Origin: a bacterium
GTDB lineage: Bacteria > Patescibacteriota > Minisyncoccia > UBA6257 > 2-01-FULL-56-20
DNA: 64,000 nucleotides
Direction of reading: 5' to 3'
NCBI GenBank assembly: GCA_027310625.1
Contig: DAIDAM010000002.1
Coordinates: 1,123-65,122, forward strand
The translations under genes were made by a program, and so were the position numbers. Of the stretch, positions 3,869-57,656 are shown in pieces. The notes beneath the pieces were generated by a model. That model saw only the letters and a program-made list of their open reading frames with translations, did no database searches and was not told the DNA's origin. Each line of letters begins with the position of its first letter. The stretch's first letter is position 1.

Positions 3869-4165
3869 TCAGGGCTTAATGATGTAACTCGTCGGCTGAA
3901 GAATGAAATCAACGACGCTTTTTATCGCGCCGCCGATTGTTTTTACCACTATCGCAAGACCGGCTTTGAACGTTTCAAAAAAGGCGAGCCCGTTGCCCCC
4001 TCCAATGTTTTGCTGTTCCGCCGGGCTCACAGGACCGAGAAGGGAGTTGAAATACTTCAGCCACAAAAAAACTACCACCGCTATCGCCACGCCGGAAAAT
4101 ACAAAAAGCCATTTCCTTTTTTCGGCGTCGTCGCTTTCCTGAATTTTTTTCAAAAAATCGTTCAT
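3869..4165 (-). CDS. small membrane protein, hypothetical
   Basis: 98-aa ORF with one hydrophobic helix (FVFSGVAIAVVVFLWL), located between gyrA and the MBL hydrolase gene on the same strand. Confidence 0.45.
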   Translation of the reverse strand: MNDFLKKIQESDDAEKRKWLFVFSGVAIAVVVFLWLKYFNSLLGPVSPAEQQNIGGGNGLAFFETFKAGLAIVVKTIGGAIKSVVDFILQPTSYIIKP

Positions 4166-4238
4166 TTTAGATTAGACATCAGACATCAGTAATCAGACAT
4201 TAGAAGTTTTAACCCTGATTTCTGATGACTGATTACTA
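4166..4238. repeat. ATCAG/CTGAT-motif intergenic repeat, copy 2
   Basis: Sequence gattagacatcagacatcagtaatcagacat...ctgatttctgatgactgattactattaac. It aligns with 3790-3868 along its whole length. Confidence 0.6.
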
Positions 4239-12863: not shown

Positions 12864-13376
12864 ATGAAATCCACCACTGTTCACGAGGACCAGCGCATAG
12901 GCATTTTCATTGACGTTCAGAATCTTTACCATTCCGCGAAAAACCTTTATCGCGGCAGGGTCAACTACAAAGAACTTCTGAAAAACCTCGTCGCCGGGCG
13001 AAAACTCATCCGTGCCGTGGCCTACGTCGTCAAAAGCGAAACCGCCGTCGGCGAAGCGGCGTTCTTCGAAGCGCTTGAAAAAGAGGGGCTGGAACTCCGC
13101 TCGAAGGATTTACAGATTTATCCCGACGGTACGAAAAAAGCCGACTGGGACGTGGGTATGGCGGTGGACGCAATCCGCATGGCGCCCTCGCTCGACTCCG
13201 TGATTCTGGTCACCGGCGACGGCGATTTCGTTCCGCTCGTGGAGTATATCAAGTGGGGAGTGGGCTCAATGGTTGAAGTCGCCGCCTTCAAAAGAAGCGC
13301 GTCGCTCAAGATTCAGGAAGCGGCCGACAGGTTTATAAATATGGAGGAGATACCGAGGATAATATTGCGCAAATAA
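12864..13376 (+). CDS. NYN domain (LabA/DUF88-like, PIN-related) protein
   Basis: 170 aa with IGIFIDVQNLY ... VILVTGDGDFVPLVE, the NYN acidic motifs. Confidence 0.7.
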   Translation: MKSTTVHEDQRIGIFIDVQNLYHSAKNLYRGRVNYKELLKNLVAGRKLIRAVAYVVKSETAVGEAAFFEALEKEGLELRSKDLQIYPDGTKKADWDVGMAVDAIRMAPSLDSVILVTGDGDFVPLVEYIKWGVGSMVEVAAFKRSASLKIQEAADRFINMEEIPRIILRK

Positions 13377-13487
13377 AAATCAGCATTAATCAGCCGCTAT
13401 CCGCATAAATCAGCGTCAAAAGTATTATTTCAGCCCTGAACGCTGATAGATGCTGATTTAGCCGATTGATGCTGATACGATGAATCA
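13377..13487. repeat. ATCAGC/GCTGAT-motif repeat cluster in the pnp 5' region
   Basis: Sequence aaatcagcattaatcagccgctatccgcataaatcagcg...gctgatagatgctgatttagccgattgatgctgatacg. The same motif grammar recurs at 27650-27770 and 40941-41023. Confidence 0.6.
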
Positions 13488-15590
13488 ATGACTAGAAAAC
13501 AATACACAACTGAAGTCGGCGGAAAAACGCTGACCATTGAAATCTCTCCTCTCGCAGAACAGGCAAACGGCGCCGCGCTCGCGAAATACGGCGAAACAGC
13601 GGTTTTGGTGACCGCGGTTATGGAAAAAAGGGAGGGCGATTTTGATTACGTCCCGCTCAAGGTTGACTACGAGGAAAGATTTTACGCCGCCGGAAAAGTT
13701 ATCGGTTCCAGATACATCAGGCGCGAAGGCCGTCCGTCGGAGGAAGCGGTTTTGTCGGCGCGGCTTGTGGACCGCGTCATCCGCCCGCTTTTTGACGAAC
13801 ACATCAGGAACGAAATGCAGGTGGTGGCGACCGTCCTCGCCTACGACGAGGAAAACGACCCCGACTTTGTGGGGCTGATGGCGGCGTCGATCGCGCTCGG
13901 AATCTCGGACATTTCCTGGAACGGGCCGGCCGCGGGCGTGCGCGTCGCGAAAATCGGCGGAAAAATCGTCGTCAACCCGACCTCGTCCGAAACAAAAAAC
14001 CCGGAGTGCGAGATGGAAATGTTCGCCGCCGGACCGAAAGGGAAAATAAATATGATTGAGCTCGGCGGGAAAGAAATTTCCGAAAAGGAAATCGTCTCGG
14101 CTTGCGAGGCGGCGCAGAGAGAAATAGACGAACTCATTCACTTTCAGGAAAAAATAATAAAGGAGAGCGGCAAGAAAAAAGCGGCCCTGAAACTTTTTGA
14201 AGTGGACGCGGAGTTTCGCGCCGAAGCGGAGAAATTTTTGAGAGAAAAAATCGAAAGCGCGATTTACAAGCCGAACAAGCTTGAATACACGGAGGCGATG
14301 GCCAACCTAAAAGCGGAGTACTTCGCCTTTATTTCCGCAAGCGAAAAGTTCGACGGCCGCTCGGCGAATCACGTCTGGGAAGAAGTCATTTGGGAAGTTG
14401 TCCAGAAAAACATTTTGGAAAAAGACAAACGTCCGGACGGCAGAAAACTCGGCGAAATCCGTAAGCTCGACGGCGAAGTGAAACTTTTCGAAAGGACGCA
14501 CGGCTCGGCGCTTTTTATAAGAGGCAACACGCAGACGCTCGCCGTGACGACGCTCGCCGCTCCCGGGGCGGAGCAGTTCATCGAGACGATGGAATTTACG
14601 GGCAAGCGGCGGTTTATGCTTCATTACAACTTTCCGCCTTATTCCGTCGGCGAAATCGGCTCTTTCCGCGGGCCGGGCAGGCGCGAAATCGGGCACGGCG
14701 CACTCGCGGAAAAAGCGCTCCGCTCCTTAATTCCTTCGCAGGAGGAATTTCCTTACACCGTCCGCGTCGTCGCCGAAACTCTTTCATCCAACGGCTCGTC
14801 TTCGATGGCGACGGTTTGCGCCTCCGCGCTTTCCCTGATGGATGCCGGCGTACCTCTCAAAAAACCGGCGGCGGGAATCGCAATGGGGATTGTGGAACGA
14901 CCAGCGACCAGCGACCAGCGACCAGAATATAAAATTTTAACGGACATTCAAGGTCCGGAGGATTTTTACGGCGGAATGGATTTCAAGGTCGCCGGCACGA
15001 GAGACGGCGTGACGGCGGTGCAGTTGGACGTCAAAATCCGCGGGCTCACTTCCGAAATGATTGAAAAAACTTTGGCGCAGGCAAAAGAGGCGCGCCTGCG
15101 GATACTTGATTTTATGAACGGCGTTTTGCCGTCGCCGCGCGAGAAACTTTCCGGCTACGCGCCGACGATAATCCAGCTCCGCATCAATCCCGAAAAAATC
15201 GGCGCCGTCATTGGTTCCGGCGGCAAGGTGATTAACGGACTAATCGAGAAATACAAACTATCGAGCATTGACATTGAAGAGGACGGCCGTGTTTTCATTT
15301 CGGCGGTTGACCGCGAACGCGCGGAAACGGCACTTGGCGAAATAAAAGCGTTGACGCGGGAATACAAAGTCGGCGAAATCGTCGAAGGCAAAGTTGTGAA
15401 ACTTCTGGATTTCGGAGCGATTGTCGATTTAGGCGGCGGCAAGGACGGGATGATCCACGTTTCTGAACTCAAGAATGGTTTCGTTAAAACCGTTAATGAA
15501 GTCGTCAAAGTCGGTGATTTCGTACGCGTGAAAGTGATTCGCGTTGACGCTGACGGGCACATCGGACTTTCGCTGAAGCAAATGGAGTAG
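13488..15590 (+). CDS. pnp: polyribonucleotide nucleotidyltransferase (PNPase)
   Basis: 700 aa with two RNase PH-like domains plus KH and S1 domains. The N-terminus MTRKQYTTEVGGKTLTIEI is typical. Confidence 0.95.
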   Translation: MTRKQYTTEVGGKTLTIEISPLAEQANGAALAKYGETAVLVTAVMEKREGDFDYVPLKVDYEERFYAAGKVIGSRYIRREGRPSEEAVLSARLVDRVIRPLFDEHIRNEMQVVATVLAYDEENDPDFVGLMAASIALGISDISWNGPAAGVRVAKIGGKIVVNPTSSETKNPECEMEMFAAGPKGKINMIELGGKEISEKEIVSACEAAQREIDELIHFQEKIIKESGKKKAALKLFEVDAEFRAEAEKFLREKIESAIYKPNKLEYTEAMANLKAEYFAFISASEKFDGRSANHVWEEVIWEVVQKNILEKDKRPDGRKLGEIRKLDGEVKLFERTHGSALFIRGNTQTLAVTTLAAPGAEQFIETMEFTGKRRFMLHYNFPPYSVGEIGSFRGPGRREIGHGALAEKALRSLIPSQEEFPYTVRVVAETLSSNGSSSMATVCASALSLMDAGVPLKKPAAGIAMGIVERPATSDQRPEYKILTDIQGPEDFYGGMDFKVAGTRDGVTAVQLDVKIRGLTSEMIEKTLAQAKEARLRILDFMNGVLPSPREKLSGYAPTIIQLRINPEKIGAVIGSGGKVINGLIEKYKLSSIDIEEDGRVFISAVDRERAETALGEIKALTREYKVGEIVEGKVVKLLDFGAIVDLGGGKDGMIHVSELKNGFVKTVNEVVKVGDFVRVKVIRVDADGHIGLSLKQME

Positions 15591-15592
15591 CG

Positions 15593-15653
15593 AGCGACCA
15601 GAGACCAGTGACCAGAGACCGGAAACCAGAGACCAGAGACCAGTAACTATATC
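15593..15653. repeat. GACCAG-family simple-sequence repeat cluster downstream of pnp
   Basis: Sequence cgagcgaccagagaccagtgaccagagaccggaaaccagagaccagagaccagtaac. Confidence 0.6.
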
Positions 15654-21041: not shown

Positions 21042-21281
21042 TGGATCCGGAGGGCGAGGAAAGGCACAAAGGTTTAAAACAAACAACCGCCGAGGTTCAG
21101 GGATTTGTGCTCCGTCTGAGATCATCCCCGCGATGATGAGTACGTCGGTGCGAGGGAAGAGAAAAAACTCCCGAACCATTAATGAGAATTCCCTTTTCAG
21201 GAAACCTCTACCCGCCACGTGGGTAACGAGTTTTTTTCTCGCCTGATGACGAGAGAATGCCTGTCCTGCTCTCCGGATCCA
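21042..21281. repeat. inverted-repeat-bounded structured element, an RT-less paralogue of the element upstream of the reverse transcriptase
   Basis: An 11-nt perfect inverted repeat TGGATCCGGAG (21042-21052) / CTCCGGATCCA (21271-21281). Its 52-nt core at 21184-21235 is 50/52 identical to 22496-22547. Confidence 0.5.
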
Positions 21282-21415
21282 GTCCACCTTGCCCATTAAG
21301 AGGGCTGAGGTGCAAGCTTGACCCGTCTCTGTACAGAAACGAGCTGCTTGCGGGACCTACCTAAATTTTATCATGTAAAGCTGCGCAGTCAAATTTTTTT
21401 GATAAAAAAAGAACG

Positions 21416-22354
21416 TCAGGTCGCACCCGACGTTCCCGATCGTTTCGCAATCGCCTGGCATTCCCTGAACCGGCGGACGAGCTTAAGTTCCGTCGTGTTC
21501 ATGGCTCCAAGACGACGTGCGTCATGGGTGGAATCGCGGAAAACACCCATCATCCCTGCGAGCTTTCGGTACAGGTCAACGTTTCGCTTGAAGACGATGC
21601 GCGCGAGGCCGCGGATTTTTCTTAGGTAGAACCGCGGCAGCATCATGCGTGCCGGAGAATTCACGCCGCGCCACTCGAGGCGGACGCCATTCATCGTAAT
21701 CGGCCCTTTCTTCAGGTCGGCCACCGTTGACTTCCGGTTATTGACCTGAAATCCGGCTTCTTTCATCGCTTCTCTTATAGCCGCGCGCTTCCTCCAGCCA
21801 ATCGGTTGCTTCGCCGAGAACGACAGGTCGTCTAGGTAGCGGGTATAGATAAGATGATGTTTTTCGGAGAGCTCCATCATCTTCCCGTCCATCAGTACCG
21901 CGGCGTAGACGTTGAAAAGGTCGGGGGACGCAGGAGCGCCGATGACCAACCCGCCCTTTTGCGAAAGGCAGTACTTCGCGAGGAACTCCGCAGTTTCTTC
22001 TTCTTCGCCGAAGAGTTCCGGGTTTGCCGCCGAGAGGATTTCGGTAAGTTTCCTGCCGTCAACCGATTGGTAGGCGTTCATGATATCGGTGAGATAGAAA
22101 TACCTGTTCTTCAGATGTTGTCGGACGCTTTCTCTCACCGATTTCCCCGGTTGCGCGCCGAAAGCGTAATCCATTCTTATTTTCAGCTTCCGTAATTCAC
22201 AAATCAGGCGCGCGTGAAGAATACGCATCGGCTCATTCGGGTCGCCTATTGTTCTTATTTTTTTCGTGCCGCCGAGCGGATTCTTATCGACATACCGGAA
22301 AGTTCGGAATTCCGGTTTTCCTTCAATTCCTTCAGTCAACTTGTTAAGGTACAT
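21416..22354 (-). CDS. reverse transcriptase, retron-type
   Basis: RT motifs DIMNAYQSV (motif 1), GGLVIGAPASPDLFNVY (motif 4, GAPxSP) and YTRYLDDLSFS (catalytic YxDD in the retron-style RYxDDLxFS context). The ATG at 22354 is preceded by AAGGAGG. Length is about 312 aa with no maturase or endonuclease domains. Confidence 0.8.
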   Translation of the reverse strand: MYLNKLTEGIEGKPEFRTFRYVDKNPLGGTKKIRTIGDPNEPMRILHARLICELRKLKIRMDYAFGAQPGKSVRESVRQHLKNRYFYLTDIMNAYQSVDGRKLTEILSAANPELFGEEEETAEFLAKYCLSQKGGLVIGAPASPDLFNVYAAVLMDGKMMELSEKHHLIYTRYLDDLSFSAKQPIGWRKRAAIREAMKEAGFQVNNRKSTVADLKKGPITMNGVRLEWRGVNSPARMMLPRFYLRKIRGLARIVFKRNVDLYRKLAGMMGVFRDSTHDARRLGAMNTTELKLVRRFRECQAIAKRSGTSGAT

Positions 22355-22380
22355 CCTAACCTCCTTGTAGAAATCAGCGG

Positions 22381-22598
22381 GAGACCTAGGGACGACTTGA
22401 AGCGTAGAGCCAGACAACAACCGCTGAGGTCTGGGATTCCTGCCTCGGCCCCCGTGGCGGCACGGGTGCAGGGGAGAAAAGCCAAGACCCGTATTGAGAG
22501 TTCCCTTTTCAGGAAACCTCTACCCGCCACGTGGGTGACGAGTTTTTGCTACCCTCATTGGTAGAGCCAAGCGCGCTTCTCGCCGTTCCCTAGGTCTC
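22381..22598 (-). ncRNA. candidate retron msr/msd non-coding RNA: a 12-nt perfect inverted repeat bracketing ~195 nt immediately upstream of the RT
   Basis: GGAGACCTAGGGA at 22380-22392 and TCCCTAGGTCTC at 22587-22598. The RT-proximal copy lies 27 nt upstream of the RT ATG. The internal sequence is GC-rich with several hairpins (CCCGUG-CCGC-CACGGG; CUCUACC...GGGUAGAG). Confidence 0.4.
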
Positions 22599-23961: not shown

Positions 23962-24088
23962 ACCCCCGCACCAAACGAGGATTGGGGTGCACGCGTCGCC
24001 GAATGGCAACAAATCACAATCCTCAGAATAATGAATTTATTTGTCAAAGAACGAAAAAAAGAAATTGTCCTCGTTTGGTGCGGGGATT
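23956..24088. repeat. 18-nt perfect inverted repeat (CCCCGCACCAAACGAGGA / TCCTCGTTTGGTGCGGGG) bounding a ~100-nt segment. The right arm is part of a promoter-like module repeated at 32254-32310.
   Basis: Direct reading of the sequence. The inner pair GAGGATTG...CAATCCTC is nested inside it. Confidence 0.5.
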
Positions 24089-24124
24089 GACACTCCTTAT
24101 TAATGAGGCGTAGAGTAGAAATGA

Positions 24125-24261
24125 TATGCCCCGTAAGAAACAGCGAGAAAATATAAATATTTTTGAGCTAATGTTACGGGCAACGGCACAAAAGTTGCTT
24201 CAGATAGCTGAAAAGTCGAACCAATGTTCACAAAAAATATTTAATTTCTTACGGGGATGCC
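24125..24261 (+). mobile_element. hairpin-ended element of the CCCCGTAAGAAA / TTTCTTACGGGG family (empty copy)
   Basis: Left end TATGCCCCGTAAGAAA (24125-24140) and right end TTTCTTACGGGGATGCC (24245-24261). Roughly the first 45 nt and last 25 nt match the copy at 32631-32772. The right end supplies the ATG of the downstream gene. Confidence 0.45.
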
Positions 24262-24845: not shown

Positions 24846-26261
24846 ATGCAGAGAATTTACCTCGATTACGCCGCTTCCACGCCCGTTGCGCCGGAAGTGG
24901 AGCGGGCGATGCGCCCGTACTTTATAAAAGAGTTCGGCAACGCCGGCTCACTCCATTCTTTCGGACAGAAAGCGATGGCGGCGATTGACGAGTCGCGCGA
25001 AACGATTGCAAAAGCCATCGGCGCGGATTTCCGCGAAGTGATATTCACCGCCTCGGCGACCGAGAGCAATAATATTGCTCTCCGCGGAATAACGCAGACC
25101 GCACGCAGAACAACGCGGAATTTTTTCAGCGTGAGTCCGCGTACAGTCCGCGTAAGTCCGCGGCCGAGATTAATAATCTCGGCAATAGAACACGAATCCG
25201 TTCTTGAAACAGCGCGCGACCTAGCCGCCCCCTTTATCAATAAAAATGGGGCGAGCCTCGCCCCTCCAGGGCGGGAGAAAGACGGCGTGGAAGTTGTTTA
25301 TCTGCCGGTTTCCAAAGGCGGCATTGTTGATTTGAAAAAACTCAAGGAGTCACTAAACGAACGGACGATTTTGGTTTCGGTGATGTACGCCAATAACGAG
25401 ATTGGAACCATTCAACCAATCGCGGAAATTTCAGAAATAATCAGAAATTTCCGAGAGACCAGGGACCAGCGACTAGCGACAAAGGGAAAAGACTGGTCTC
25501 CGGTTTCTGGTCTCTATCCTCTCTTCCACACCGACGCCGTCCAGGCATTCCAGTTTCTTGATTGTGATGTGAAAAAACTCGGCGTCGATTTGATGACGCT
25601 TTCGGCGCACAAAATTTACGGACCGAAAGGGATCGGAGCGTTATATGTTCGAAGTTCGGCGTTCGGAGTTCGAAATGAAAAAGACAATCGAACAATTCGA
25701 ACCTCGAACCTCGAACCGATAATTACCGGCGGCGGCCAGGAATTCGGGCTTCGCTCCGGAACGGAAAACGTCCCGCTCATCGTCGGTTTCGCGAAAGCCG
25801 TTTCGCTCGCCGCTAAACTCCGCGAGAAGGAATCAAAAAGAATCGGAGACCTCCGCGATTATTTATGGAGGGAGTTGAAAAAGATTTATCCACCTGCGCA
25901 GGTTAACGGTCAATTTTCATCAACGAATAACGAATCAATTTCGAATAAACGAATTCGTGAATTCGGGACGAATTCGCTATTCGCCGATATTCTTCCGAAT
26001 TTTCTGAATGTTTACTTTCCCGACTACAAGGCGGAGGACCTGCTGACGCGGTTTGATTTGGCGGGCATTGCCGTTTCCGCCGGTTCGGCATGCGCGGCGC
26101 GTTCGACCGAGCCGTCCTATGTCATAAAAACCCTTGTTTTGGGGATGAAACAACCCAGCCGCAGTATTCGTATTACTTTAGGGAGGCCGACGAGCAAAAA
26201 AGACATTGACATAACCCTAAAATTGGCTAGAAAATTATTTGCCACCAATGCCAGGCGGTAG
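24846..26261 (+). CDS. cysteine desulfurase (IscS/NifS family) carrying several repeat-derived in-frame insertions
   Basis: N-terminal YLDYAASTPVAPEV, the PLP-lysine region SAHKIYGPKGIGALYV and the active-site loop SAGSACAARSTEPSYV. It is 471 aa against about 400 aa for typical members. The extra segments map onto repetitive DNA at 25131-25163, 25454-25513, 25646-25718 and 25921-25989. Confidence 0.8.
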   Translation: MQRIYLDYAASTPVAPEVERAMRPYFIKEFGNAGSLHSFGQKAMAAIDESRETIAKAIGADFREVIFTASATESNNIALRGITQTARRTTRNFFSVSPRTVRVSPRPRLIISAIEHESVLETARDLAAPFINKNGASLAPPGREKDGVEVVYLPVSKGGIVDLKKLKESLNERTILVSVMYANNEIGTIQPIAEISEIIRNFRETRDQRLATKGKDWSPVSGLYPLFHTDAVQAFQFLDCDVKKLGVDLMTLSAHKIYGPKGIGALYVRSSAFGVRNEKDNRTIRTSNLEPIITGGGQEFGLRSGTENVPLIVGFAKAVSLAAKLREKESKRIGDLRDYLWRELKKIYPPAQVNGQFSSTNNESISNKRIREFGTNSLFADILPNFLNVYFPDYKAEDLLTRFDLAGIAVSAGSACAARSTEPSYVIKTLVLGMKQPSRSIRITLGRPTSKKDIDITLKLARKLFATNARR

Positions 26262-27649: not shown

Positions 27650-27770
27650 GCCGTAGAATATCGGCATAAATCAGCCCGCATCGGCATTTATCAGCGTTAA
27701 AAGTTCGGCGACATAGTTCCACGCTGATTTATGCTGATTGTTGCGGATAGATGCTGATAAATAAACTAAA
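27650..27770. repeat. ATCAGC/GCTGAT-motif repeat cluster in the clpB 5' region
   Basis: Sequence cggcataaatcagcccgcatcggcatttatcagcg...gctgatttatgctgattgttgcggatagatgctgataaat. Confidence 0.6.
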
Positions 27771-31407: not shown

Positions 31408-32229
31408 ATGAAGAAGGTAACAAAACTGGTTCTGCCGGTTGCGGGATTCGGAAAAAGGTTGATGCCCCTGACAAAAAAGACCCCCAAGAACCTTTTGAGA
31501 GTCAACGGGAAACCGCTTGTGGAATATGTTTTTGAAGAAGCAGTCGGCTCGGGAATAAAGGACATAATTTTGATAGTGAATCCCAGCCACAGGGACGATT
31601 TCAAATCCTATTTGGAATCCGCGGGGGAGAAATTCCCCTTTTTCCGTTTTCACACAAGGGTTCAGGAGACCCCGGCGGGAAACGGCCATGCGCTTATTTC
31701 CGCAAAAGACATTTTGAAGGAAGAGCCGTTCGCCGTGAGATTCTGCGACGACATCGTCGTTTCCGATTCCCCGATAATTCCCTCAATGCTCAAGATTTTT
31801 GGAAAACACAAATCTTCCGTTGTGCTTCTTGAACGCATTCCTAAAACGCACGTCGGCCGTTTCGGGGTTGTGAGCGCGAAAAATTCCGAGTCAATAAGCG
31901 GCATAAAAGGAAAGATTTACGAAATTGACGGGGTCGTTGAAAAACCGAAGCCGAAATATGCCCCCTCCAATTTAATCGTCGTCGGCGGATACATTCTCAC
32001 GCCGACCGTTCTCCGCAATCTCATTAAGGTATCGGAATCCCTTCCGCATGCGGCAGCCGACGCCATTCCGATAAACGTCGGGCTCCAGATAGAATTGATT
32101 ACGGGGAAAAAGATTTACGGATGGGAGTTTGTCGGAAAACGTCTTGATTGCGGAACTCTGGAAAAATTCCACAAAGCGCAGGAGGCGTTGAGAAAGCTCG
32201 CCAAGCGGGATATGTTGCCTCCACACTAA
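31408..32229 (+). CDS. sugar-1-phosphate nucleotidyltransferase, UTP--glucose-1-phosphate uridylyltransferase-like
   Basis: N-terminal LVLPVAGFGKRLMPLTKKTPKNLL, the G-x-G-x-R nucleotidyltransferase loop. Confidence 0.6.
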   Translation: MKKVTKLVLPVAGFGKRLMPLTKKTPKNLLRVNGKPLVEYVFEEAVGSGIKDIILIVNPSHRDDFKSYLESAGEKFPFFRFHTRVQETPAGNGHALISAKDILKEEPFAVRFCDDIVVSDSPIIPSMLKIFGKHKSSVVLLERIPKTHVGRFGVVSAKNSESISGIKGKIYEIDGVVEKPKPKYAPSNLIVVGGYILTPTVLRNLIKVSESLPHAAADAIPINVGLQIELITGKKIYGWEFVGKRLDCGTLEKFHKAQEALRKLAKRDMLPPH

Positions 32230-32283
32230 ACGGCAAGCGCGCGGAGCACAAAAAATAAATACATTGCCGTTTGGTGTGGGGGT

Positions 32284-32310
32284 TGACACCCCTTTTTTTG
32301 CCGTTAGAAT
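32284..32310 (+). promoter_or_regulatory. promoter-like module: TTGACA, 15-nt spacer, TAGAAT
   Basis: GGGGTTGACACCCC...TAGAAT. The same CGTTTGGTG-GGGG-TTGACAC module precedes the element at 24125 (24087-24116). Confidence 0.35.
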
Positions 32311-32317
32311 TTCCGAT

Positions 32318-32772
32318 TATGCCCCGTAAGAAATAGTTATGTTTTATGTCTATATTTTACAAAGTGAAAAAGACGGCAAACTATATGCAGGGTTCACATC
32401 CGACCTCAGAAAAAGATTACTAAAACATAACTCCGGCAAAGTATTTTCAACGAAGTCGCGCAGGCCACTCAAATTAATTTACTGTGAAGTATGCACCAAT
32501 GAGCAAGATGCAAAACAACGAGAAAAATATTTTAAGGCGGGGGCTGGCAAGAAATTCATCAAAAACAGACTGAGAAATTATTTTCAAGGCCATATTATGA
32601 CATCAACAAAAATATTTTAGTTTCTTACGGGGTATGCCCCGTAAGAAATGGCGAGAAAATGAAAAATATTTTTGAGCAAAGATTAAGGAATATCAAATAT
32701 GAAATCGATAACTGAATATTGTAAGGTCGGGCTGATGTCAACAAAAATATTTTAGTTTCTTACGGGGTATGC
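32318..32772 (+). mobile_element. composite hairpin-element locus: CCCCGTAAGAAA inverted repeats precisely bracketing a GIY-YIG gene, followed by an empty tandem copy
   Basis: Left half TATGCCCCGTAAGAAATAG (32318-32336). Full 12-bp-stem hairpin TTTCTTACGGGG-TATG-CCCCGTAAGAAA (32621-32648) directly after the GIY-YIG stop. Right half TTTCTTACGGGGTATGCC (32755-32772) supplies the ATG of the next gene. Confidence 0.5.
32339..32620 (+). CDS. GIY-YIG nuclease family protein (small YhbQ/URI-domain type)
   Basis: 93 aa with FYVYILQSEKDGKLYAGFTSDLRKRLLKHN, the GIY...YIG motifs with the conserved R and N. Confidence 0.8.
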   Translation: MFYVYILQSEKDGKLYAGFTSDLRKRLLKHNSGKVFSTKSRRPLKLIYCEVCTNEQDAKQREKYFKAGAGKKFIKNRLRNYFQGHIMTSTKIF

Positions 32773-40940: not shown

Positions 40941-41023
40941 CGCCGATTGATGCCGATACGGCTGATTTGTGCTGATTAAAAATACATCGGCATCCATCAG
41001 CTTAAATCCGCATAAATCAGCGG
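40941..41023. repeat. ATCAGC/GCTGAT-motif repeat cluster
   Basis: Sequence gccgattgatgccgatacggctgatttgtgctgatt...catcagcttaaatccgcataaatcagcggc. Confidence 0.6.
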
Positions 41024-45904: not shown

Positions 45905-45959
45905 ATTTTGTTTGAAAATTGAACAAAGTGAAAATTTTCATTACAAAATCTTAACCGAG

Positions 45960-46122
45960 CACATAAATTTATGAATATACCAAACAATAGAGAATTAAGT
46001 AATCGCAGCACAAACCAGCCATATTATATTAATCGTTTGATTAAATTTATGTGCTCGGTGCTCAATTTTGAATACCGCTCGGTCTGCGGTATAACTACCT
46101 TGCCCTCGCGGGCAAAATTACC
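45960..46122 (+). promoter_or_regulatory. pilus-gene leader module, copy 1 (interrupted variant)
   Basis: ACCGAGCACATAAATTTATG...AAATTTATGTGCTCGGTGCTCAATTTTG...CGCTCGGTCTGCGGTATAACTACCTTGCCCTCGCGGGCAAAATTACC then ATG. It shares its 3' ~75 nt with copies 2 and 3. Confidence 0.5.
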
Positions 46123-46695
46123 ATGCCTCTTCCTGAACAAATAGCAAATCGGACGGCGCACGGACCGATAGGAACACCGGGATGGTCAGGCCAGCTTCTG
46201 ATGTTCAGCGGCACCGTTTTTTTCATAAGCTTGGCGGTTTATCTCGGGATCGCTTACGGGTACAAACCCTATCTTGAAAGGCAGGTTGCGATTCTTGACG
46301 AGCAGATAAAAAGCTACACCAGGCAAATTACTCCCGACGAACAGGAAAAACTCATTTCCTTTTACTCGCAGGTGGCGAACCTTAACGAAATCCTCAAAAG
46401 CCGGTTTACTCCCTCGCAGATATTCGGCTGGCTTGAAAAAAACACCGGTGCGAACATTTATTACAACGGGTTCGGTTTTCTCCTTGCCGATTATCAAGTC
46501 AATCTTTCCGGCATTTCAAAAACAGTGGACGGTTTTTCAAAACAGATGGTTTTATTCCAGAATAATCCTGCCGTTGAAAGGGCGTCCATCAACAGCTTTT
46601 CGTCGGCGGGAGGAAACCTTTGGCAGTTTAACGTTTCTCTTTTCCTGAATAAAGACGCCTTGAATTCAGGAGTCACGGTTCAACAAGAACAATGA
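46123..46695 (+). CDS. PilN-like type IV pilus biogenesis protein (bitopic)
   Basis: 190 aa with one N-terminal transmembrane helix. The call relies on its position after pilM. Confidence 0.5.
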   Translation: MPLPEQIANRTAHGPIGTPGWSGQLLMFSGTVFFISLAVYLGIAYGYKPYLERQVAILDEQIKSYTRQITPDEQEKLISFYSQVANLNEILKSRFTPSQIFGWLEKNTGANIYYNGFGFLLADYQVNLSGISKTVDGFSKQMVLFQNNPAVERASINSFSSAGGNLWQFNVSLFLNKDALNSGVTVQQEQ

Positions 46696-47285: not shown

Positions 47286-47576
47286 ATGGCTATAGTCTTT
47301 GAAGAAAAGACAAACACAGGCGCAATAACGACCTTCATCGTTTGGGTGATTATTCTTGGGGTAATAGCCGCAAGCGTCTATTACGTCTTTTTCAAAGAAC
47401 CGCAGCTTGTGGAATTCACTTCTTCTGCTTCTTTCAAAAATATCCAGCAGCTTTCAAAAATCACCATCAACTCCGCGGAACTCGTTAATAATCCCCAGTT
47501 CGCGGCCCTTAAGCAGTACATCACCGTTTCGCCGCTGGAAGGCGCGGGAAAGTCAAATCCATTTTTGGGGTTCTGA
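47286..47576 (+). CDS. small bitopic protein of the pilus cluster, hypothetical
   Basis: 96 aa with one transmembrane helix. Confidence 0.35.
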   Translation: MAIVFEEKTNTGAITTFIVWVIILGVIAASVYYVFFKEPQLVEFTSSASFKNIQQLSKITINSAELVNNPQFAALKQYITVSPLEGAGKSNPFLGF

Positions 47577-47730
47577 AGGTCTTTGCCTAAATTTTGGAGC
47601 ATGAAATGCAAACAAAATTTATCGCAAACACCTTTACCGAGCACATAGGTCTATTATGTGCTCGGTGCTCAATTTTGCAGCCGCTCGGGCTGCGTTATAA
47701 AATTAACTTGCCCTCGCGGGCAAAATTGGC
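47577..47730 (+). promoter_or_regulatory. pilus-gene leader module, copy 2 (in front of pilB)
   Basis: About 150 nt near-identical to 50660-50813. Contains the hairpin GAGCACATA-GGTCTAT-TATGTGCTC, a candidate -35/-10 pair (TTGCAG, 17 nt, TAAAAT) and the hairpin TTGCCC-TCGC-GGGCAA abutting the ATG. Confidence 0.5.
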
Positions 47731-49461
47731 ATGACCACAGATCAACTTCTCGGCGAACTTCAGAAGCGGAAACTTCTCACCGAAGAGGTTTCGAACAAAA
47801 TCAGGAGGGAATCGCTTCTTTCGGGGCGCTCCGCGGAAGACATAATTTTTTCTCAGCGGCTTGTTGAAAACGAGCAAGTCGCAAAGCTCAAGAGCGAGGT
47901 TTTAAAAATACCGTATCAAAAGGTGGATGCTTCCAAACTTGACGAAAAACTTTTTGAGTTAATACCCGAGGAAACAGCAAGGACTTACGGAGCAGTTCCC
48001 ATTTCCCAGAGCGACAATCTTTTGGTTGTCGGGATGCTGAGACCCGACGACCCGAAAGCGCAGGAGGCGCTGAAGTTCATCGCTAGGCGCCGCCGTTTGA
48101 ATCTCGGAGTTTACGTGATTTCATATTCCGACTGGCAGGATGTTTTGAGAAGATATTCTCCATATAAAAGCGAAGTGGAAGCTGCTGTGCGCTCGCTTGA
48201 TATTAAGTCGGGCGGCGCCGGCGGCAGGCGACTCGTCGGACTTGAGGAAACGGCTTCAACCAAGCTGGAAGACGCGCCGATTATAAGAATAGTCGCGAAG
48301 ACCTTCAGCGAAGCCGTTCAAAAAGGCGCTTCCGACGTTCACATCGAACCGCTTGAAAATTATTTGAGAGTGAGATTCAGGATAAACGGGCAGCTTGAAG
48401 AAGAAATTGCTTTGCCGGCGGAACTTTCGCAATCAGTAGTTTCGCGCGTGAAGGTTATTTCCAATCTCAAGATAGACGAGGCAAGAGTGCCCCAGGACGG
48501 ACGTTTCCGGACGAGAGTTTTTGACAGAGAAATAGATTTCCGCGTTTCCACGTTTCCGACTCCGCTCGGCGAAAAAGTCGCCATTCGCGTTCTCGACCCC
48601 TCCACCGGGCTAAAAGATTTCGGACAACTCGGCCTTGAAGGGAAAAATCTTTCAACAATAAAAGAAGGACTTTCAAAACCGTTTGGTATGATACTTCTCA
48701 CCGGCCCTACCGGCTCCGGAAAAACAACTACCCTTTACGCGATTCTCCAAACCCTCAACAAAGAAAATATAAACATTCTTAGTTTGGAAGACCCCGTGGA
48801 GTATCTCGTTTCCGGAATAAACCAGTCGCAGGTCAGACCGGAGATAGGATACGATTTTGCTTCCGGATTGAGAGAAATGTTGCGGCAGGACCCGGACATA
48901 ATAATGGTCGGCGAGATAAGGGATAACGAAACAGCGGGGCTTGCGGTCCACGCCGCGCTCACGGGACATATAGTTCTTTCAACCTTGCATACCAATAATG
49001 CCATCGGCGTCATTCCGCGGCTGATTGACATGAAAGTTGAGCCGTTTCTTCTGCCGCCTTCACTCAACCTGATGGTTTCACAGCGCCTCGTCGGCCGCCT
49101 TTGTCAAAATTGCAGGAAGAAAGAGACGGCGCCGCAGGAAATGCAAAGAATAATCAAAAAAGCACTGAACGATTTGCCGTCCGAAATAACGTCCGCCTAC
49201 AAAGAACCGTACGAGATTTACAAAAGCGAGGGGTGTCCCAAATGTCAGGGGAAGGGAATTGTCGGCAGGATAGCGCTTTTCGAGGTTTTCAAAATGACGA
49301 ACGAGCTTCAAAAAATAATAGTTTCCAGCCCCACCGTCCAGCTCATTTCCGAGGAAGCAAAGAGACAGGGAATGATAACACTGCACCAAGACGGCATAAT
49401 AAAAGCGCTCTCCGGTCTTGTAAAAATCGAGGAGGTGATTAAGGAAACGGAAGAATCGTGA
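47731..49461 (+). CDS. pilB: type IV pilus assembly ATPase PilB (GspE family)
   Basis: 576 aa with Walker A LLTGPTGSGKTTTL, a tetracysteine motif CQNC...CPKC and a GspE N-domain. Confidence 0.9.
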   Translation: MTTDQLLGELQKRKLLTEEVSNKIRRESLLSGRSAEDIIFSQRLVENEQVAKLKSEVLKIPYQKVDASKLDEKLFELIPEETARTYGAVPISQSDNLLVVGMLRPDDPKAQEALKFIARRRRLNLGVYVISYSDWQDVLRRYSPYKSEVEAAVRSLDIKSGGAGGRRLVGLEETASTKLEDAPIIRIVAKTFSEAVQKGASDVHIEPLENYLRVRFRINGQLEEEIALPAELSQSVVSRVKVISNLKIDEARVPQDGRFRTRVFDREIDFRVSTFPTPLGEKVAIRVLDPSTGLKDFGQLGLEGKNLSTIKEGLSKPFGMILLTGPTGSGKTTTLYAILQTLNKENINILSLEDPVEYLVSGINQSQVRPEIGYDFASGLREMLRQDPDIIMVGEIRDNETAGLAVHAALTGHIVLSTLHTNNAIGVIPRLIDMKVEPFLLPPSLNLMVSQRLVGRLCQNCRKKETAPQEMQRIIKKALNDLPSEITSAYKEPYEIYKSEGCPKCQGKGIVGRIALFEVFKMTNELQKIIVSSPTVQLISEEAKRQGMITLHQDGIIKALSGLVKIEEVIKETEES

Positions 49462-49585: not shown

Positions 49586-50659
49586 ATGCCCACGCCACAG
49601 GAACAACTGAATGACCTTCTTATAACCACCGCAAAACAGAACGCTTCCGACCTTCATTTGGCCGTTGGACGGCGCCCGACCCTCCGCGTTGACGGAGTTC
49701 TCGTTCCTATTCAAAAAGAACCGCAGCTTACCCGAGAAGCAGTTGAGGGCGTAATTTCCGCGCTCATAACTCCCGAACAAAAAAAAGTTTTTCTTGAAAA
49801 AAAGCAACTGGACTTCGCTTATAGTTTTGAAGACAAGGCGAGATTCCGCGTCAACGTTTATTTCCAGCGCGGCTATATGTCGGCGTCGCTGCGCTTGATA
49901 CCCGCGAGGATAAGAACGGTAGAAGAATTGAATCTCGCGCCGATACTTCACGAGTTCCCGAAGCTTTCGCAGGGCTTCGTTCTCATTGTCGGTCCGGCGG
50001 GACACGGGAAATCGACTACGCTCGCCGCCATGCTTGATGAGGTGAACCACAACCGCACCGACCACATTGTTACAATAGAAGACCCGATTGAATACATTTT
50101 TACGCAGGACAGATGCATAGTTTCGCAGAGGGAAGTCGGGGCCGACGCCTTGAGTTTCCACTCGGCATTGAGAACTGTTTTGCGTCAGGACCCCGACGTT
50201 ATCATGATAGGAGAAATGCGCGACACAATTTCAATCGCAACAGCGATGACCGCGGCGGAAACGGGCCACCTCGTTTTTTCCACACTTCACACCAATTCCG
50301 CTTCGCAGACGATAGACAGAGTCATTGATTCCTTCCCGGCGGAACAGCAGGGACAAATTGTTTCTCAGCTTGCCTCCACGCTTGTCGGCATAATTTCCCA
50401 GCGTCTCATTCCGCGTCTTTCCGGAGGAAGAATTCCGGCGCTTGAGATAATGATAACGAACCCCGCCGTCAGGAACCTCATCCGTGAAAGGAAAATCTAT
50501 CAGATTGACCTTGTGATAGAGACGAGCTTGCAGGAAGGAATGCTGACGATGAACCGTTCTCTTGCAAACCTCGTAAAAACGAAGGAAATTTCGCTTGAAA
50601 ACGCGGAGCTCTATTCCCCGAATCCGGCGGAATTGAGGATACTGCTGGAGAGGATGTAA
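49586..50659 (+). CDS. pilT: twitching motility ATPase PilT
   Basis: 357 aa with Walker A LIVGPAGHGKSTT and the PilT-type AIRNLIRE motif. Confidence 0.9.
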   Translation: MPTPQEQLNDLLITTAKQNASDLHLAVGRRPTLRVDGVLVPIQKEPQLTREAVEGVISALITPEQKKVFLEKKQLDFAYSFEDKARFRVNVYFQRGYMSASLRLIPARIRTVEELNLAPILHEFPKLSQGFVLIVGPAGHGKSTTLAAMLDEVNHNRTDHIVTIEDPIEYIFTQDRCIVSQREVGADALSFHSALRTVLRQDPDVIMIGEMRDTISIATAMTAAETGHLVFSTLHTNSASQTIDRVIDSFPAEQQGQIVSQLASTLVGIISQRLIPRLSGGRIPALEIMITNPAVRNLIRERKIYQIDLVIETSLQEGMLTMNRSLANLVKTKEISLENAELYSPNPAELRILLERM

Positions 50660-50813
50660 ATGTCTTTGCCTAAATTTTGGAGCATGAAATGCGAACAAAA
50701 TTTATCGCAAACACCTTTACCGAGCACATAGGTCTATTATGTGCTCGGTGCTCAATTTTGCAGCCGCTCGGGCTGCGTTATAAAATTAACTTGCCCTCAC
50801 GGGCAAAATTGGC
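50660..50813 (+). promoter_or_regulatory. pilus-gene leader module, copy 3 (in front of pilC)
   Basis: Differs from copy 2 at only about 3 positions. Confidence 0.5.
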
Positions 50814-52028
50814 ATGAAGTTTAAATACCAGGCAAAAACAAGAGAAGGAGAAAACCAGGTTGGATTCGTGGAAGCGCCTTCAAGAGACGTCGCCGCGAGC
50901 ATTCTTTCGAGCCACAATCTCTTCATTCTGACGCTTAATGAGGTGGGCAAAGAAGGGTTCTTTCAAAGGTTTGAAAGTTATTTTTCAAAACGCCTTAAAA
51001 AGAGCGAACTCGTTATCTTCACAAGACAGCTTGCAATGCTTCTTGAAGCAAGGGTGCCTCTCAACACGAGTTTAAAAGCGATTCATGAGCAGTCGCAAAA
51101 TCCCATTTTGAAGGAAGCGGCGCTTGAAATAGCGGAAGATATAGACGCGGGACTTCCCTTTTCGCAGGCGATAGAGCGCCAGCCGGAAATTTTTTCCGGG
51201 TTCTTCTCAAGCATGGTGCGTTCCGCAGAGATCACCGGCAATCTTGAAAACGTGATGAACTTCCTTGCGGACTACCTTGAACGCGAGTATTCGCTTCAAA
51301 AAAGAGTGGAGTCGGCGCTGATTTATCCGGGAATGATTATAGGCCTTTTCATAGTTGTTTCATTCATTCTCGTGGCTTTCGTCATTCCCCAGATCAGTCC
51401 GATATTCAGAGACGCAGGGGTAAATCTTCCTTTTTTCGTAATGATACTTGTCGGCGTAGGTGCTTTTGTGGGCCAGTGGTGGCCCGTTGTCGCTCTCGGA
51501 TTATTTTTCCTTGCTCTTTTTGCTATAGATTACTTTCAAACGCCGGAGGGCAAAGCCCTGAAAGATGAACTTAAAATAAAACTTCCGATGCTGAAAAGCA
51601 TTTATCTCCCCCTTACAATAACGAGAATCGCCAATTCGGCGTCAATGCTTTTGAGAGGCGGCGTCCCGATTGTGCAATCGCTTGAAATAATCGGGGAAAC
51701 CGCGGACAACGTCGTTTACAAAGAAATAATGCACCAGATTGCGGAAGAAGTTCGCCAAGGTCAGCAAATTTCGGCTTCCGCATCAAAATACCCTGAATAT
51801 TTTCCCTCAACCGTCACGCAAATGATAGCGGTAGGCGAAGCCGCTGGTCAGCTTGAGCAGACATTTTCAAGAATATCCGTTTTTTACGGAAGGGAGGCCG
51901 ACTCGGTGATAAATAACATCGTTGAGCTTATCCAGCCGGTGCTTATCATCGGCGTCGGAATACTCGTCGGACTTCTTTTTTCTTCCATTCTTCTTCCGAT
52001 ATACCAGCTCATCGGGACAATACGTTAA
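50814..52028 (+). CDS. pilC: type IV pilus inner-membrane platform protein PilC (GspF family)
   Basis: 404 aa with two GspF repeats and three transmembrane segments. Confidence 0.85.
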   Translation: MKFKYQAKTREGENQVGFVEAPSRDVAASILSSHNLFILTLNEVGKEGFFQRFESYFSKRLKKSELVIFTRQLAMLLEARVPLNTSLKAIHEQSQNPILKEAALEIAEDIDAGLPFSQAIERQPEIFSGFFSSMVRSAEITGNLENVMNFLADYLEREYSLQKRVESALIYPGMIIGLFIVVSFILVAFVIPQISPIFRDAGVNLPFFVMILVGVGAFVGQWWPVVALGLFFLALFAIDYFQTPEGKALKDELKIKLPMLKSIYLPLTITRIANSASMLLRGGVPIVQSLEIIGETADNVVYKEIMHQIAEEVRQGQQISASASKYPEYFPSTVTQMIAVGEAAGQLEQTFSRISVFYGREADSVINNIVELIQPVLIIGVGILVGLLFSSILLPIYQLIGTIR

Positions 52029-55590: not shown

Positions 55591-57656
55591 AAGGCGAGGA
55601 GAAAAGAAAAATTTCTTTAAGCGCCGCAAAAGAAAGAATAGAACACCTCAAAAAGGCGATAAAAAAATACAGGTACGAAAGATTGGTTTTCAACAAAGAA
55701 ATTATTTCACCGGAAGCGGAAGATGCCCTCAAGAAAGAACTTTTCGATTTGGAGGAGAAATTTCCGGAACTTATGACATCCGATTCGCCGACCCGGCGCG
55801 TCGGCGGAAAGCCGCTCCAGCAATTCAAAAAAGTGCGCCACGAGGAGCGCATGCTCTCGTTCAACGACGCTTTTTCGGGAAAAGACGTCGAGGACTGGCT
55901 TGGAAGGGTTTCGAATTATCTCGGAAGAAAAATCGCCGGCCCGTTTTACGCCGAGCTCAAAATTGACGGCCTCGCGATAGAACTTGTCTACGAAAACGGG
56001 ATTTTTGTTGAAGGTTCAACGCGCGGCGACGGCGAAATCGGCGAAGACGTAACGCAGAATCTCAAAACCATCGAAGCGATACCGCTGTCGCTAGACATCA
56101 GACATCAGACATCAGACATCAGAATCCCCGAACGTTTGGTTGTTCGCGGCGAGATTTTCTTGAACAAAAAAGAATTCGAGGCGATAAACCGCGAGCAGAA
56201 AAAAATGGGATTGAAAACTTACGCCAATCCGCGGAATGTCGCCGCCGGCTCGGTGCGCCAGCTTGACCCGAAAATAACCGCCAGCCGAAAACTCGATTCT
56301 TTTCAGTACGATATAGTCACAAATGTCGGCCAGAAAAAGCACAGCGAGGAGCATGAAATTCTCCACAAACTCGGCTTTCACACCAATCCGAACAATAAAG
56401 TTTGCGAGACGATAAAAGACGTTTTTGAATTCCACGATTACTGGAACAGGCATCGGGAGAAACTTCCTTACGAAATAGACGGCATCGTCATAATAGTTGA
56501 CGACAACAAAACTTACGATTCCGCCGGCGTCATCGGCAAAGCGCCGCGCGCCGCCATCGCTTACAAATTCTCTCCCAAGGAAGCGACGACCGTCGTTGAA
56601 AACATAAAAGTGCAGGTGGGGAGAACCGGGGCGCTGACGCCCGTCGCCGTTATGCGTCCCGTGCAGGTCGGCGGCGTGACGATTACGCACGCCACGCTTC
56701 ACAACGCCGACGAAATAAAACGGCTCGGTCTCAAAATTGGCGACACCGTCATCGTCAGCCGCGCGGGCGACGTCATTCCGCAGATAACAAGAGTTTTGAA
56801 AGAAATGCGGACGGGAAAGGAAAAGGAATTTGAAGTGCCGTCGCATTGCCCAATCGACGGCTCGAAACTTGTTCAGGACGGAGCGATTTTAAGATGCTCG
56901 AGCAAGACCTGCGCCGCGCGCCACAGGGAATCGCTTTATCACTTCGTTTCCCGTCCCGCTTTCGATATCCGCGGGCTCGGGCCGAAAATCATCGACAGAT
57001 TTTTGGATGAAGGTTTGATTTCGGATGCCGCCGACATCTTCGAACTTAAGGAAGGCGACATCGCGGCGCTCGAAAGATTCGGTGAAAAATCGGCGGAAAA
57101 TATCGTCGGCGAAATCGAAAGCAGAAAAAAAATTTCTTTGAGCCGCTTTATTTTTTCGCTCGGAGTTTTGCATGTCGGCGAGGAGACGGCGAATGTGCTT
57201 ACGCAACATATAGCATATAGCGTATCGCATATTGCAAAACCAAATGACATTTATAAAGCATTTCGCGGTTTGTCGCTTGAAAATCTGCAGGAGATTCGCG
57301 ACATCGGGCCGAAAGTGGCGCAAAGCATTCACGATTGGTTCCGCGAACAGAGAAACATAAAACTACTCGAAAAACTCGGGAGAGTTGGAATAGTGATAAA
57401 AAGCGACCAGCGACCAGCGACCAGCGGTAAACTCAAGGGAAAAACTTTCGTGCTCACCGGCGGACTGGAATCGCTAACTCGCGACGAAGCGAAAGAAAAA
57501 ATCCGCGAGCTCGGCGGCGACGTATCGGAATCAGTCAGTAGAATGATATCTTACGTCGTCGCCGGCAGCGAACCGGGGTCGAAATACGAAAAAGCACAAA
57601 AATTAGGCATCAAGATAATTTCGGAGAGAGAATTTCTCAACATTTTGAAGGGTTGA
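55587..57656 (+). CDS. ligA: NAD-dependent DNA ligase
   Basis: 689 aa with the adenylation KxDG motif (ELKIDGLA), Zn-finger cysteines, HhH and BRCT domains. Confidence 0.95.
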   Translation: MKGEEKRKISLSAAKERIEHLKKAIKKYRYERLVFNKEIISPEAEDALKKELFDLEEKFPELMTSDSPTRRVGGKPLQQFKKVRHEERMLSFNDAFSGKDVEDWLGRVSNYLGRKIAGPFYAELKIDGLAIELVYENGIFVEGSTRGDGEIGEDVTQNLKTIEAIPLSLDIRHQTSDIRIPERLVVRGEIFLNKKEFEAINREQKKMGLKTYANPRNVAAGSVRQLDPKITASRKLDSFQYDIVTNVGQKKHSEEHEILHKLGFHTNPNNKVCETIKDVFEFHDYWNRHREKLPYEIDGIVIIVDDNKTYDSAGVIGKAPRAAIAYKFSPKEATTVVENIKVQVGRTGALTPVAVMRPVQVGGVTITHATLHNADEIKRLGLKIGDTVIVSRAGDVIPQITRVLKEMRTGKEKEFEVPSHCPIDGSKLVQDGAILRCSSKTCAARHRESLYHFVSRPAFDIRGLGPKIIDRFLDEGLISDAADIFELKEGDIAALERFGEKSAENIVGEIESRKKISLSRFIFSLGVLHVGEETANVLTQHIAYSVSHIAKPNDIYKAFRGLSLENLQEIRDIGPKVAQSIHDWFREQRNIKLLEKLGRVGIVIKSDQRPATSGKLKGKTFVLTGGLESLTRDEAKEKIRELGGDVSESVSRMISYVVAGSEPGSKYEKAQKLGIKIISEREFLNILKG

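Follow-up and report, generated by a model that had tools for sequence, protein, structure and literature searches.

A family of miniature inverted-repeat elements at start codons in Patescibacteria, with a full-length form carrying a predicted GIY-YIG nuclease gene

INTRODUCTION

The subject of this report is a 64,000-nt stretch of a patescibacterial genome (contig DAIDAM010000002.1, positions 1,123 to 65,122 of the forward strand, in GenBank assembly GCA_027310625.1; GTDB lineage Patescibacteriota, Minisyncoccia, UBA6257, 2-01-FULL-56-20), called the window below, and three short units within it, U1, U2 and U3, that share their ends. U2 encloses a gene for a GIY-YIG nuclease; U1 and U3 are non-coding and resemble MITEs (miniature transposable elements with inverted repeats). 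The right end of U1 abuts the start codon of an open reading frame (ORF) for an RNase H-like protein, and that of U3 abuts the start codon of an ORF for a helix-turn-helix (HTH) protein (Table 1). We hold with high confidence that U1, U2 and U3 are copies of a mobile (transposable) element family.

Table 1. Coordinates of the units, their flanking duplications, adjacent host features and heptamer-like arrays in the window
Feature	Position	Strand	Remarks
U2, full-length element, 311 bp	32322..32632	+	left end 32322-32333, nuclease ORF, right end 32621-32632
GIY-YIG nuclease gene, 93 aa, in U2	32339..32620	+	Pfam PF01541, E=2.6e-17
U3, non-coding MITE-like derivative, 131 bp	32637..32767	+	ends 32637-32648 and 32756-32767; subterminal hairpin ~32650-32678
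U1, non-coding MITE-like derivative, 128 bp	24129..24256	+	ends 24129-24140 and 24245-24256; subterminal hairpin ~24142-24169
TATG, left target-site duplication of U2	32318..32321	+	original host start site
TATG common to U2 (right duplication) and U3 (left duplication)	32633..32636	+	makes the loop (4 nt) of the hairpin at the junction
TATG, right duplication of U3	32768..32771	+	its ATG is the HTH gene start codon
ATG, left copy of the U1 3-bp duplication	24126..24128	+	original start-codon position
ATG, right copy of the U1 duplication	24257..24259	+	RNase H-like gene start codon
Host promoter upstream of U2, TTGACA-16-TAGAAT	32283..32310	+	11/12; outside the duplication, not part of the element
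Host promoter of the RNase H-like gene, TTGACA-18-TAGAGT	24087..24116	+	10/12; kept in element-free orthologues
RNase H-like ORF, 164 aa	24257-24751	+	ATG abuts right end of U1
HTH ORF, 246 aa	32769-33509	+	ATG abuts right end of U3
Heptamer-like arrays	3789-4208, 13371-13415, 14899-15648, 25083-25123, 25457-25523
Heptamer-like arrays, continued	27652-27758, 40978-41022, 56087-56127, 57398-57429, 63222-63530

STRUCTURE OF THE LOCUS

Each of the three units is bounded by the 12-nt sequence CCCCGTAAGAAA and its complement, the two ends being complementary at 12 of 12 positions. These sequences have six exact occurrences in the window against 0.52 expected, and none of 100 shuffles reached six. 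Every unit is flanked by short direct repeats, with TATG standing three times around U2 and U3 and ATG twice around U1. U1 and U3 are 67% identical overall, their ends conserved and their interior variable. Directly after the TAG codon of the nuclease gene, whose last ~7 codons extend into the right subterminal block of U2, there is a perfect hairpin, TTTCTTACGGGG-TATG-CCCCGTAAGAAA, at 32621-32648. The A of the left ATG lies 8 nt (U2) and 9 nt (U1) downstream of a −10 box. An earlier note on this DNA had described the inverted 12-nt ends of the three units, the hairpin behind the stop codon and the divergence of the non-coding units between conserved ends, and on all three we agree with it; it had set the left end 3 nt before the nuclease ATG, where the actual gap is 5 nt, and had overlooked the direct repeats.

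The units fold better than their shuffles (z −4.2 to −4.9). Only tRNAs reach the Rfam gathering score in the window, and a permissive search gave chance-level matches only. A small conserved ORF read from the left ATG (MPRKK...) was considered and rejected, since its stop position differs among U1, U2, U3 and their relatives.

COPIES IN OTHER GENOMES

For a census of the family, one genome per species was scanned with the conserved right end AATATTTN{2,3}TTTCYTACGGGG, an exact match being needed and the metagenome-assembled genomes (MAGs) among them being incomplete. This gave 63 loci, 50 of which are in Patescibacteria-type or unclassified MAGs; Saccharibacteria, Nealson-, Lipton- and Roizmanbacteria and Parcubacteria are represented, several genomes holding 4-6 copies. 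The other 13 loci are isolated ones in other phyla, without a partner end, and their number is close to the ~17 estimated by hand from the pattern and the size of the collection. The right-end pattern found no copy in viral contigs.

Among the 50 copies analysed, the inverted ends are perfect 12-mers in 38 and have one mismatch in the remainder. Identical 4-mers flank 35 of the 50 (shuffle mean 10.8, maximum 20 in 10,000 shuffles), and the match holds where the left flank is not TATG (15 of 28 such sites, 1.5 expected). The duplicated sequences are TATG (20 copies), TATA (5) and CATG (3), and also ATGA, TAAA, TTAG, TAAG and AATG; one 5-bp duplication (CTTTA) and a few 3-bp cases occur as well. 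Duplications that match within a site and vary between sites are the signature of insertion. Matching flanks of so many different sequences disfavour cutting and ligation of sticky ends or recombination through core homology, both of which we considered. A guide model of the IS605 kind, with the right tetranucleotide travelling with the element, was likewise set aside: on inspection no position inside the element changes in step with the flank variant, and there is free variation in the flanks.

The nuclease has close homologues (80-86% identity) whose genomic surroundings are unrelated. In L001 the homologue lies upstream of a sigma-like gene, in L006 it stands between mreD-like and PBP2 genes, and in L008 it is upstream of a DUF2283 gene. 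In all three the ends are the same but for a compensated change (CCCCGTAGGAAA / TTTCCTACGGGG), and their flanks vary together, TATG/TATG in two and TATA/TATA in L006. The full-length architecture of 309-311 bp is found in these loci and also in L015 and L058, and full-length copies at unrelated loci (L001, L006, L008, L015, L071 and L181) each have their own duplication, variously TATG, TATA or CATG.

Terminal inverted repeats, duplications that vary with the site, dispersed copies and empty sites (below) are thus all found, and the small mobile family proposed in the earlier note, which had named target-site duplications and presence/absence polymorphism as the things to look for, is borne out. 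U1, U2 and U3 are copies of a family of MITEs, so far found mainly in Patescibacteria, whose transposition is deduced here from sequence comparison. Some copies are nested or lie close together: on the reverse strand of L055 (~665-913) there are three ends within 250 bp, and in L036 (3889-5594) two miniature copies lie 1.4 kb apart, which suggests insertion beside or into existing copies.

ELEMENT-FREE ORTHOLOGUES AND HOST SIGNALS

We fetched 80 relatives of the RNase H-like gene and inspected the 23 closest (65-88% identity), 21 of which have an intact upstream region. All 21 read TTGACA-N17-TAGAGT-N6-11-ATGCCnGAATTTTT and lack the element, a clear presence/absence polymorphism. When the window is aligned with these orthologues the difference is exactly 131 nt, that is, the 128-bp U1 plus a second ATG. 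Both the promoter and the MP start are therefore features of the host, and the ATG is a duplicated target. An exact look-up of the window nuclease and of the RNase H-like protein gave no record of either. The HTH protein has exact matches in two short contigs only (L082, L083), which carry no empty-site information because both break inside the repeat. These contigs, from public short-read assemblies of the same strain, end exactly within the right end of the element (positions 1-30 in each).

Three proposals of the earlier note are changed by these comparisons. Its observation that the right ends adjoin the ATG of the next gene stands, but the element does not donate this codon, which is the duplicated host codon; element-free orthologues also begin ATGCCnGAATTT (MPEF). 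The promoter-like module that it saw upstream of two units is there, but it is not the element's own, because it lies outside the duplication and keeps its place in element-free orthologues. The hairpin at 32621-32648, taken in the note for a terminator, is followed by TGGCGAGAAAATG and has no U-tract, and a terminator scan makes no call there; it is the junction of two tandem copies, because a tandem pair of a full and a miniature copy sharing one TATG recurs in L058 (Nealsonbacteria). The host promoter upstream of U2 would now read into U2, U3 and the HTH gene.

In the window, GGTGNGGGGNTTGACA is found solely at the two promoter-like sites upstream of U1 and U2. The conserved block GGTGNGGGG ahead of both −35 boxes belongs, as the 3' arm, to an inverted repeat distinct from the element; it lies outside the duplications and is also present in two element-free orthologous loci (L102, L106). 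This second inverted-repeat family has arms CCCCRCACCWAACG... / ...CGTTWGGTGYGGGG, 17-19 nt long and 20-130 nt apart, at 23965-24086 and 32218-32282 in the window and upstream of the RNase H-like gene in L102 and L106. At both promoters that feed the GIY-YIG elements, its 3' arm stops 1-2 nt short of the −35 box; this repeat is the promoter module of the earlier note. It is present in some orthologous loci and absent from others, with no evident duplication, and may be another mobile hairpin element or a terminator.

INSERTION AT GENE STARTS

In 28 of the 50 copies an ORF of 74 aa or more begins at the right-hand ATG. With orientation set by the subterminal motif, TATG outnumbers CATA by 20 to 0, and the downstream gene is co-oriented with the element in 40 of 46 informative cases. 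The stretch 4-11 nt upstream of the left ATG shows a 3.7-fold enrichment of strong −10 hexamers, which indicates that many targets are leaderless or near-leaderless start sites. Sites that are not start codons (TATA, TAAA, TTAG, TAAG) are occupied too, with perfect duplications. The picture is that of a mobile element adapted to start codons, one whose duplication regenerates the ATG of the host and hands the element a promoter and, in some lineages, a start codon.

THE NUCLEASE-ENCODING FORM

In the ~310-bp form, perfect 12-bp inverted ends CCCCGTARGAAA surround a single nuclease gene. Six of the eight long copies (290-311 bp) have an intact ORF of 86-93 aa that starts 5 nt after the left end. 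The common variant of the left end has an AGGA box 7-8 nt before the nuclease ATG, probably a Shine-Dalgarno-like signal. The protein is a predicted nuclease of the stand-alone Slx1-like/UPF0213 GIY-YIG clade, with structure-database matches to PDB 1zg2 (3e-7), 1ywl (1e-6) and SLX1 7wme (0.018). Residues Y5, Y16, G18, R26, H30 and E62 are invariant, and the catalytic Y, Y, R, H and E are so in all 26 sequences compared. With pN at 0.08-0.22 and synonymous sites saturated (pS 0.63-0.94), the coding sequences point to strong purifying selection on the nuclease; the 12-nt ends are unchanged while synonymous sites are saturated, which argues for strong constraint on the ends too. That the nuclease, which the earlier note took for cargo or a mobility factor, is an integral component of the element is supported by all of this.

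No recognised transposase (DDE, DEDD, HUH, Ser or Tyr) is encoded by the element, its only ORF being the PF01541 GIY-YIG gene. In the 50 paired copies no other gene and no transposase lies between the ends, and solo ends are truncated copies. A search for larger elements with the same ends (up to 4 kb, 2 mismatches) returned only a chance pair in Photorhabdus, and no cognate insertion sequence (IS).

Gene callers yield nuclease ORFs that are extended by MP or read through the element end (P0026, P0045, P0050, P0062, P0088). In practice these repeats break Patescibacteria assemblies and mislead gene callers.

THE NON-CODING FORM

Miniature copies number 42 and measure 120-191 bp, with a mode of ~130. 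Their layout is a 12-nt end, a subterminal hairpin, a variable middle, AAGGTC and ACGGAAAATATTTAATTTCCTACGGGG. What they share with the full form is ~17 nt at the left end and ~40 nt at the right, the hairpin module taking the place of the gene. The hairpin stem covaries (GGCGAG.., CAAGTG.., GCGGAG.., CGCAGA..), with 37 double-change cells against 10.5 in shuffles and 0 of 500 shuffles reaching that number; slid-pairing controls collapse. Many of its pairs are G·U, which would be C·A on the opposite strand. Since G·U pairs fit one strand only, the folded strand is the sense strand, as RNA or as top-strand DNA.

Pairwise and profile comparison of the miniature interior with the nuclease gene gave collinear anchors only (E 0.04-0.7), which suggest homology to the 3' third of the gene. 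The anchors are CGAGAA..AAATATTTT, where the gene encodes REKYF, TTCAAGGTC, where it encodes YFQG, and the rightmost 30 nt. Derivation of the miniature copies by deletion from the nuclease gene form is plausible, though unproven.

RELATED LINEAGES

Divergent lineages of the nuclease have inverted ends of their own on the same plan, all starting CCCNGT or CCCGCT. L181 has ends CCCCGTAGGACAAC (14/14) and the duplication TATG. The ends of L164 are CCCAGT(T)AATTCAACTTTAA, again with TATG, and the right ATG starts the next gene. In L170 the ends are CCCGC(T)CCAAATTTTTATTTA (20/21) and the duplication is CCTA; this 292-bp element (853-1144 within 787-1157) lies in the 3' strand of the acceptor stem of tRNA-Gly(TCC), and its left end (CCCGCTCCA) exactly replaces the displaced 3' end of the tRNA, which stays intact. 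Bacteroidota ends are CCCTGTTAAATA (12/12, L176) or CCYGTGAAATA.

In some lineages the coding sequence is joined to the end itself. The nucleases P0062 (L181) and P0063 have no ATG of their own, and their reading frame begins at the left duplicated host ATG and runs on through the end (MPRRTTTWYYVY; MPRRTTT-WYYVYVL), and P0088 and P0100, of the L164 lineage, are in frame with the left duplicated host ATG.

The Bacteroidota GIY-YIG genes, 60% identical, interrupt PF05635 genes ('23S rRNA IVS / four-helix-bundle') at ...DN|IAEG... (L176 519-1229, element 677-961; L072 1476-1761). In L176 the element is followed, 40 bp downstream, by a hairpin mini-element of 50 bp (1000-1049) whose ends are related. 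These insertions look more homing-like than the Patescibacteria copies.

INTERPRETATION

We favour the reading that the units belong to a MITE-like family that inserts at TATG and at start codons, with the Slx1-like nuclease as its mobility factor, and taken as a whole we think it probable. That the nuclease is the mobility enzyme is, judged by itself, about an even call. The most specific version, in which the 87-aa nuclease would be the transposase of a new class of prokaryotic DNA transposons with CCCNGT-type ends and directional insertion at the 5'-terminal ATG, falls slightly short of that.

Insertion duplicates 4 bp of the target (in some copies 3), and TATG or YATR is strongly preferred. 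The insertions that survive lie overwhelmingly on a start codon, often that of a leaderless or near-leaderless gene just past the −10 box, and in the orientation of that gene. One ATG is thus left on each side of the element. The right duplicated ATG would keep the host ORF intact and the left one would remain close to the promoter. The element, apparently without a promoter of its own, would be transcribed from that of the host, and the nuclease translated from its own Shine-Dalgarno sequence and ATG or, in other lineages, from the captured left host ATG. Its substrate would be the ends of CCCNGT type, recognised or cut probably in the form of a structure on the sense strand or a branched one (Slx1 relatives have structure-specific activity), and full and miniature copies alike would be excised and inserted with its help. 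The host gene would be translated behind a structured leader of 130-310 nt, possibly helped by processing of the end stem or by re-initiation.

Several points weigh against this reading or parts of it. We know of no GIY-YIG enzyme that carries out strand transfer, no DNA-binding module is obvious in a domain of 87 aa, and duplications of exactly 4 bp are what DDE-type transposases classically leave behind. In several MAGs there are 4-6 miniature copies and no full-length one, in a scan that needs an exact right end and covers incomplete MAGs, and the Bacteroidota lineage shows no clear target duplication. Homology between the miniature form and the nuclease gene is only suggested, by the collinear anchors described above. 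The bias in start codons and orientation could arise by selection after insertion in very compact genomes and not by targeting, for instance of the promoter bubble. Finally, the Slx1-like clade is described as one of minimal repair-type nucleases (PMC1564403).

It is possible, though in our judgement unlikely, that both forms are non-autonomous MITEs or mobile insertion cassettes moved in trans by an unseen conventional transposase, with the GIY-YIG gene as a passenger or selfish hitch-hiker. The combination of exact 4-bp duplications and short perfect inverted ends is generally typical of DDE insertion sequences, and many MAGs show miniature copies only. GIY-YIG enzymes are moreover hydrolytic nucleases and not known transposases (PMC1564403). 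This explanation has to contend with the want of a transposase between the ends of the 50 paired copies, and with the nuclease and its ends, which diverge together across at least five lineages and two phyla while the CCC terminus is kept. The position of the gene within the ends is fixed, and in two lineages its ORF is fused to the end and the duplicated ATG; none of this is expected of a random passenger.

We give considerably less weight to the idea that the GIY-YIG gene is a homing-type selfish gene that invaded hairpins or miniature repeats already in place, which would offer it a homing site in many copies and would have spread in some other way. Homing is a classic role of GIY-YIG enzymes, the Bacteroidota homologues interrupt one gene family (PF05635) at the same conserved motif, and the tandem arrangement of a full and a miniature copy is seen twice (the window and L058). 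Against invasion, the full form contains no split miniature copy, sharing only the terminal ~17 and ~40 nt with it, and full-length copies have varied duplications of their own at unrelated loci, which homing would not create. A homing gene would occupy one homologous target without repeats or duplications, and the Patescibacteria copies lie at many unrelated genes. The least probable explanation, to which we attach hardly any credence, is that the units are not mobile DNA and represent a conserved, structured 5'-leader RNA acting in cis. Their location between promoter and ATG, their folding beyond shuffles and the covarying sense-strand hairpin would all suit a leader; duplications that match site by site, tandem copies, clean empty sites in orthologues, copies away from gene starts (TATA, TAAA, TTAG, TAAG, inside a tRNA gene) and the lack of an Rfam match would not. 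A secondary role at the RNA level, after insertion, may nevertheless exist.

If the nuclease is indeed the mobility enzyme, it would add a sixth catalytic class to the transposases of prokaryotes, and the full-length form would define a minimal autonomous transposon, ~310 bp long and encoding a single protein of 87 aa. To our knowledge this is smaller than any known autonomous transposon; IS200 has ~700 bp. Even if it is not, the bacterial Slx1-like repair clade contains selfish members, contrary to the 2006 survey of the superfamily (PMC1564403), and there is a mechanistic lead for the unexplained GIY-YIG insertions in rRNA genes of the Candidate Phyla Radiation (CPR) (PMC11270868).

OTHER REPEATS AND GENES IN THE WINDOW

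A reverse-transcriptase ORF on the reverse strand (21416-22420; YLDD motif, RVT_1 E=3e-14) has a direct repeat of 90 nt on its two sides, 80% identical between its copies at 21146-21235 and 22458-22547. To judge from this arrangement, the locus (21146-22547) looks like a diversity-generating retroelement with a template/variable repeat pair. A three-copy intergenic repeat, unrelated to the GIY-YIG element, is found at 45945-46125, 47569-47734 and 50652-50817; two of the copies agree over 166 nt at 96%, and the repeat contains the palindrome TTGCCCTCGCGGGCAA and the exact 24-mer TTATGTGCTCGGTGCTCAATTTTG. Degenerate heptamer-like arrays (GACCAGC, CAGACAT, ATCAGCn, CGCGGAn...) are scattered through the window, some of them apparently inside ORFs (Table 1). 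In Psychroflexus the four-helix-bundle gene in which the GIY-YIG element lies has closely similar arrays (ACAGTCC/ACAGATG...) on either side (L072 1240-1310 and 1960-2100).

RELATION TO KNOWN ELEMENTS

The closest likeness among MITEs is to the Correia elements of Neisseria, which have 100-190 bp, terminal inverted repeats, a short duplication and many copies, insert next to genes and have ends that pair into a stem once transcribed. Their target duplication is TA, and we know of no cognate enzyme for them. The present family differs from them in having a ~310-bp relative with the same ends that encodes a protein (a GIY-YIG nuclease, not a known transposase), and in its target, which is TATG at start codons with strict co-orientation.

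With insertion sequences and mobile insertion cassettes the elements have in common that they duplicate their target and that their inverted ends enclose just one small gene; unlike insertion sequences, they encode no DDE, HUH, serine or tyrosine enzyme, and they fail to fit any IS family because no known transposase is encoded. The REP/RAYT (REPIN) and IS200/IS605 systems also combine a small nuclease gene between inverted palindromic repeats with dispersed short hairpin copies, a structure that is biased to one strand and orientation, and a preference for a tetranucleotide target. The enzyme here is GIY-YIG and not HUH Y1, and the assignment to IS200/IS605 fails because true terminal inverted repeats and variable duplications are present, both of which are absent there.

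Penelope-like retroelements have a GIY-YIG endonuclease domain and also leave target duplications. In contrast to these and to the GIY-YIG homing endonucleases (I-TevI, Seg), the nuclease here is Slx1-like and stands alone, without a DNA-binding extension, an intron or a reverse transcriptase, and the element spreads to many non-homologous sites where a homing endonuclease gene occupies one allele. In the 2006 survey all selfish GIY-YIG enzymes derive from the UvrC-like and not the Slx1-like lineage, and bacterial Slx1-like proteins are treated as vertically inherited repair enzymes (PMC1564403). A 2024 report describes GIY-YIG ORFs in short insertions in CPR rRNA genes, which are neither group I nor group II introns and are not explained by homing (PMC11270868). 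These insertions come from the same phylum and likewise carry GIY-YIG ORFs in short insertions, a likeness by description only; inverted repeats and target duplications have no occurrence in that paper (PMC11270868).

A search of the full-text literature found no description of such elements. We conclude that this is a new MITE/IS-like element, combining an unprecedented gene content with start-codon capture, and that it would be a new class of transposon if the nuclease proves to be its transposase.

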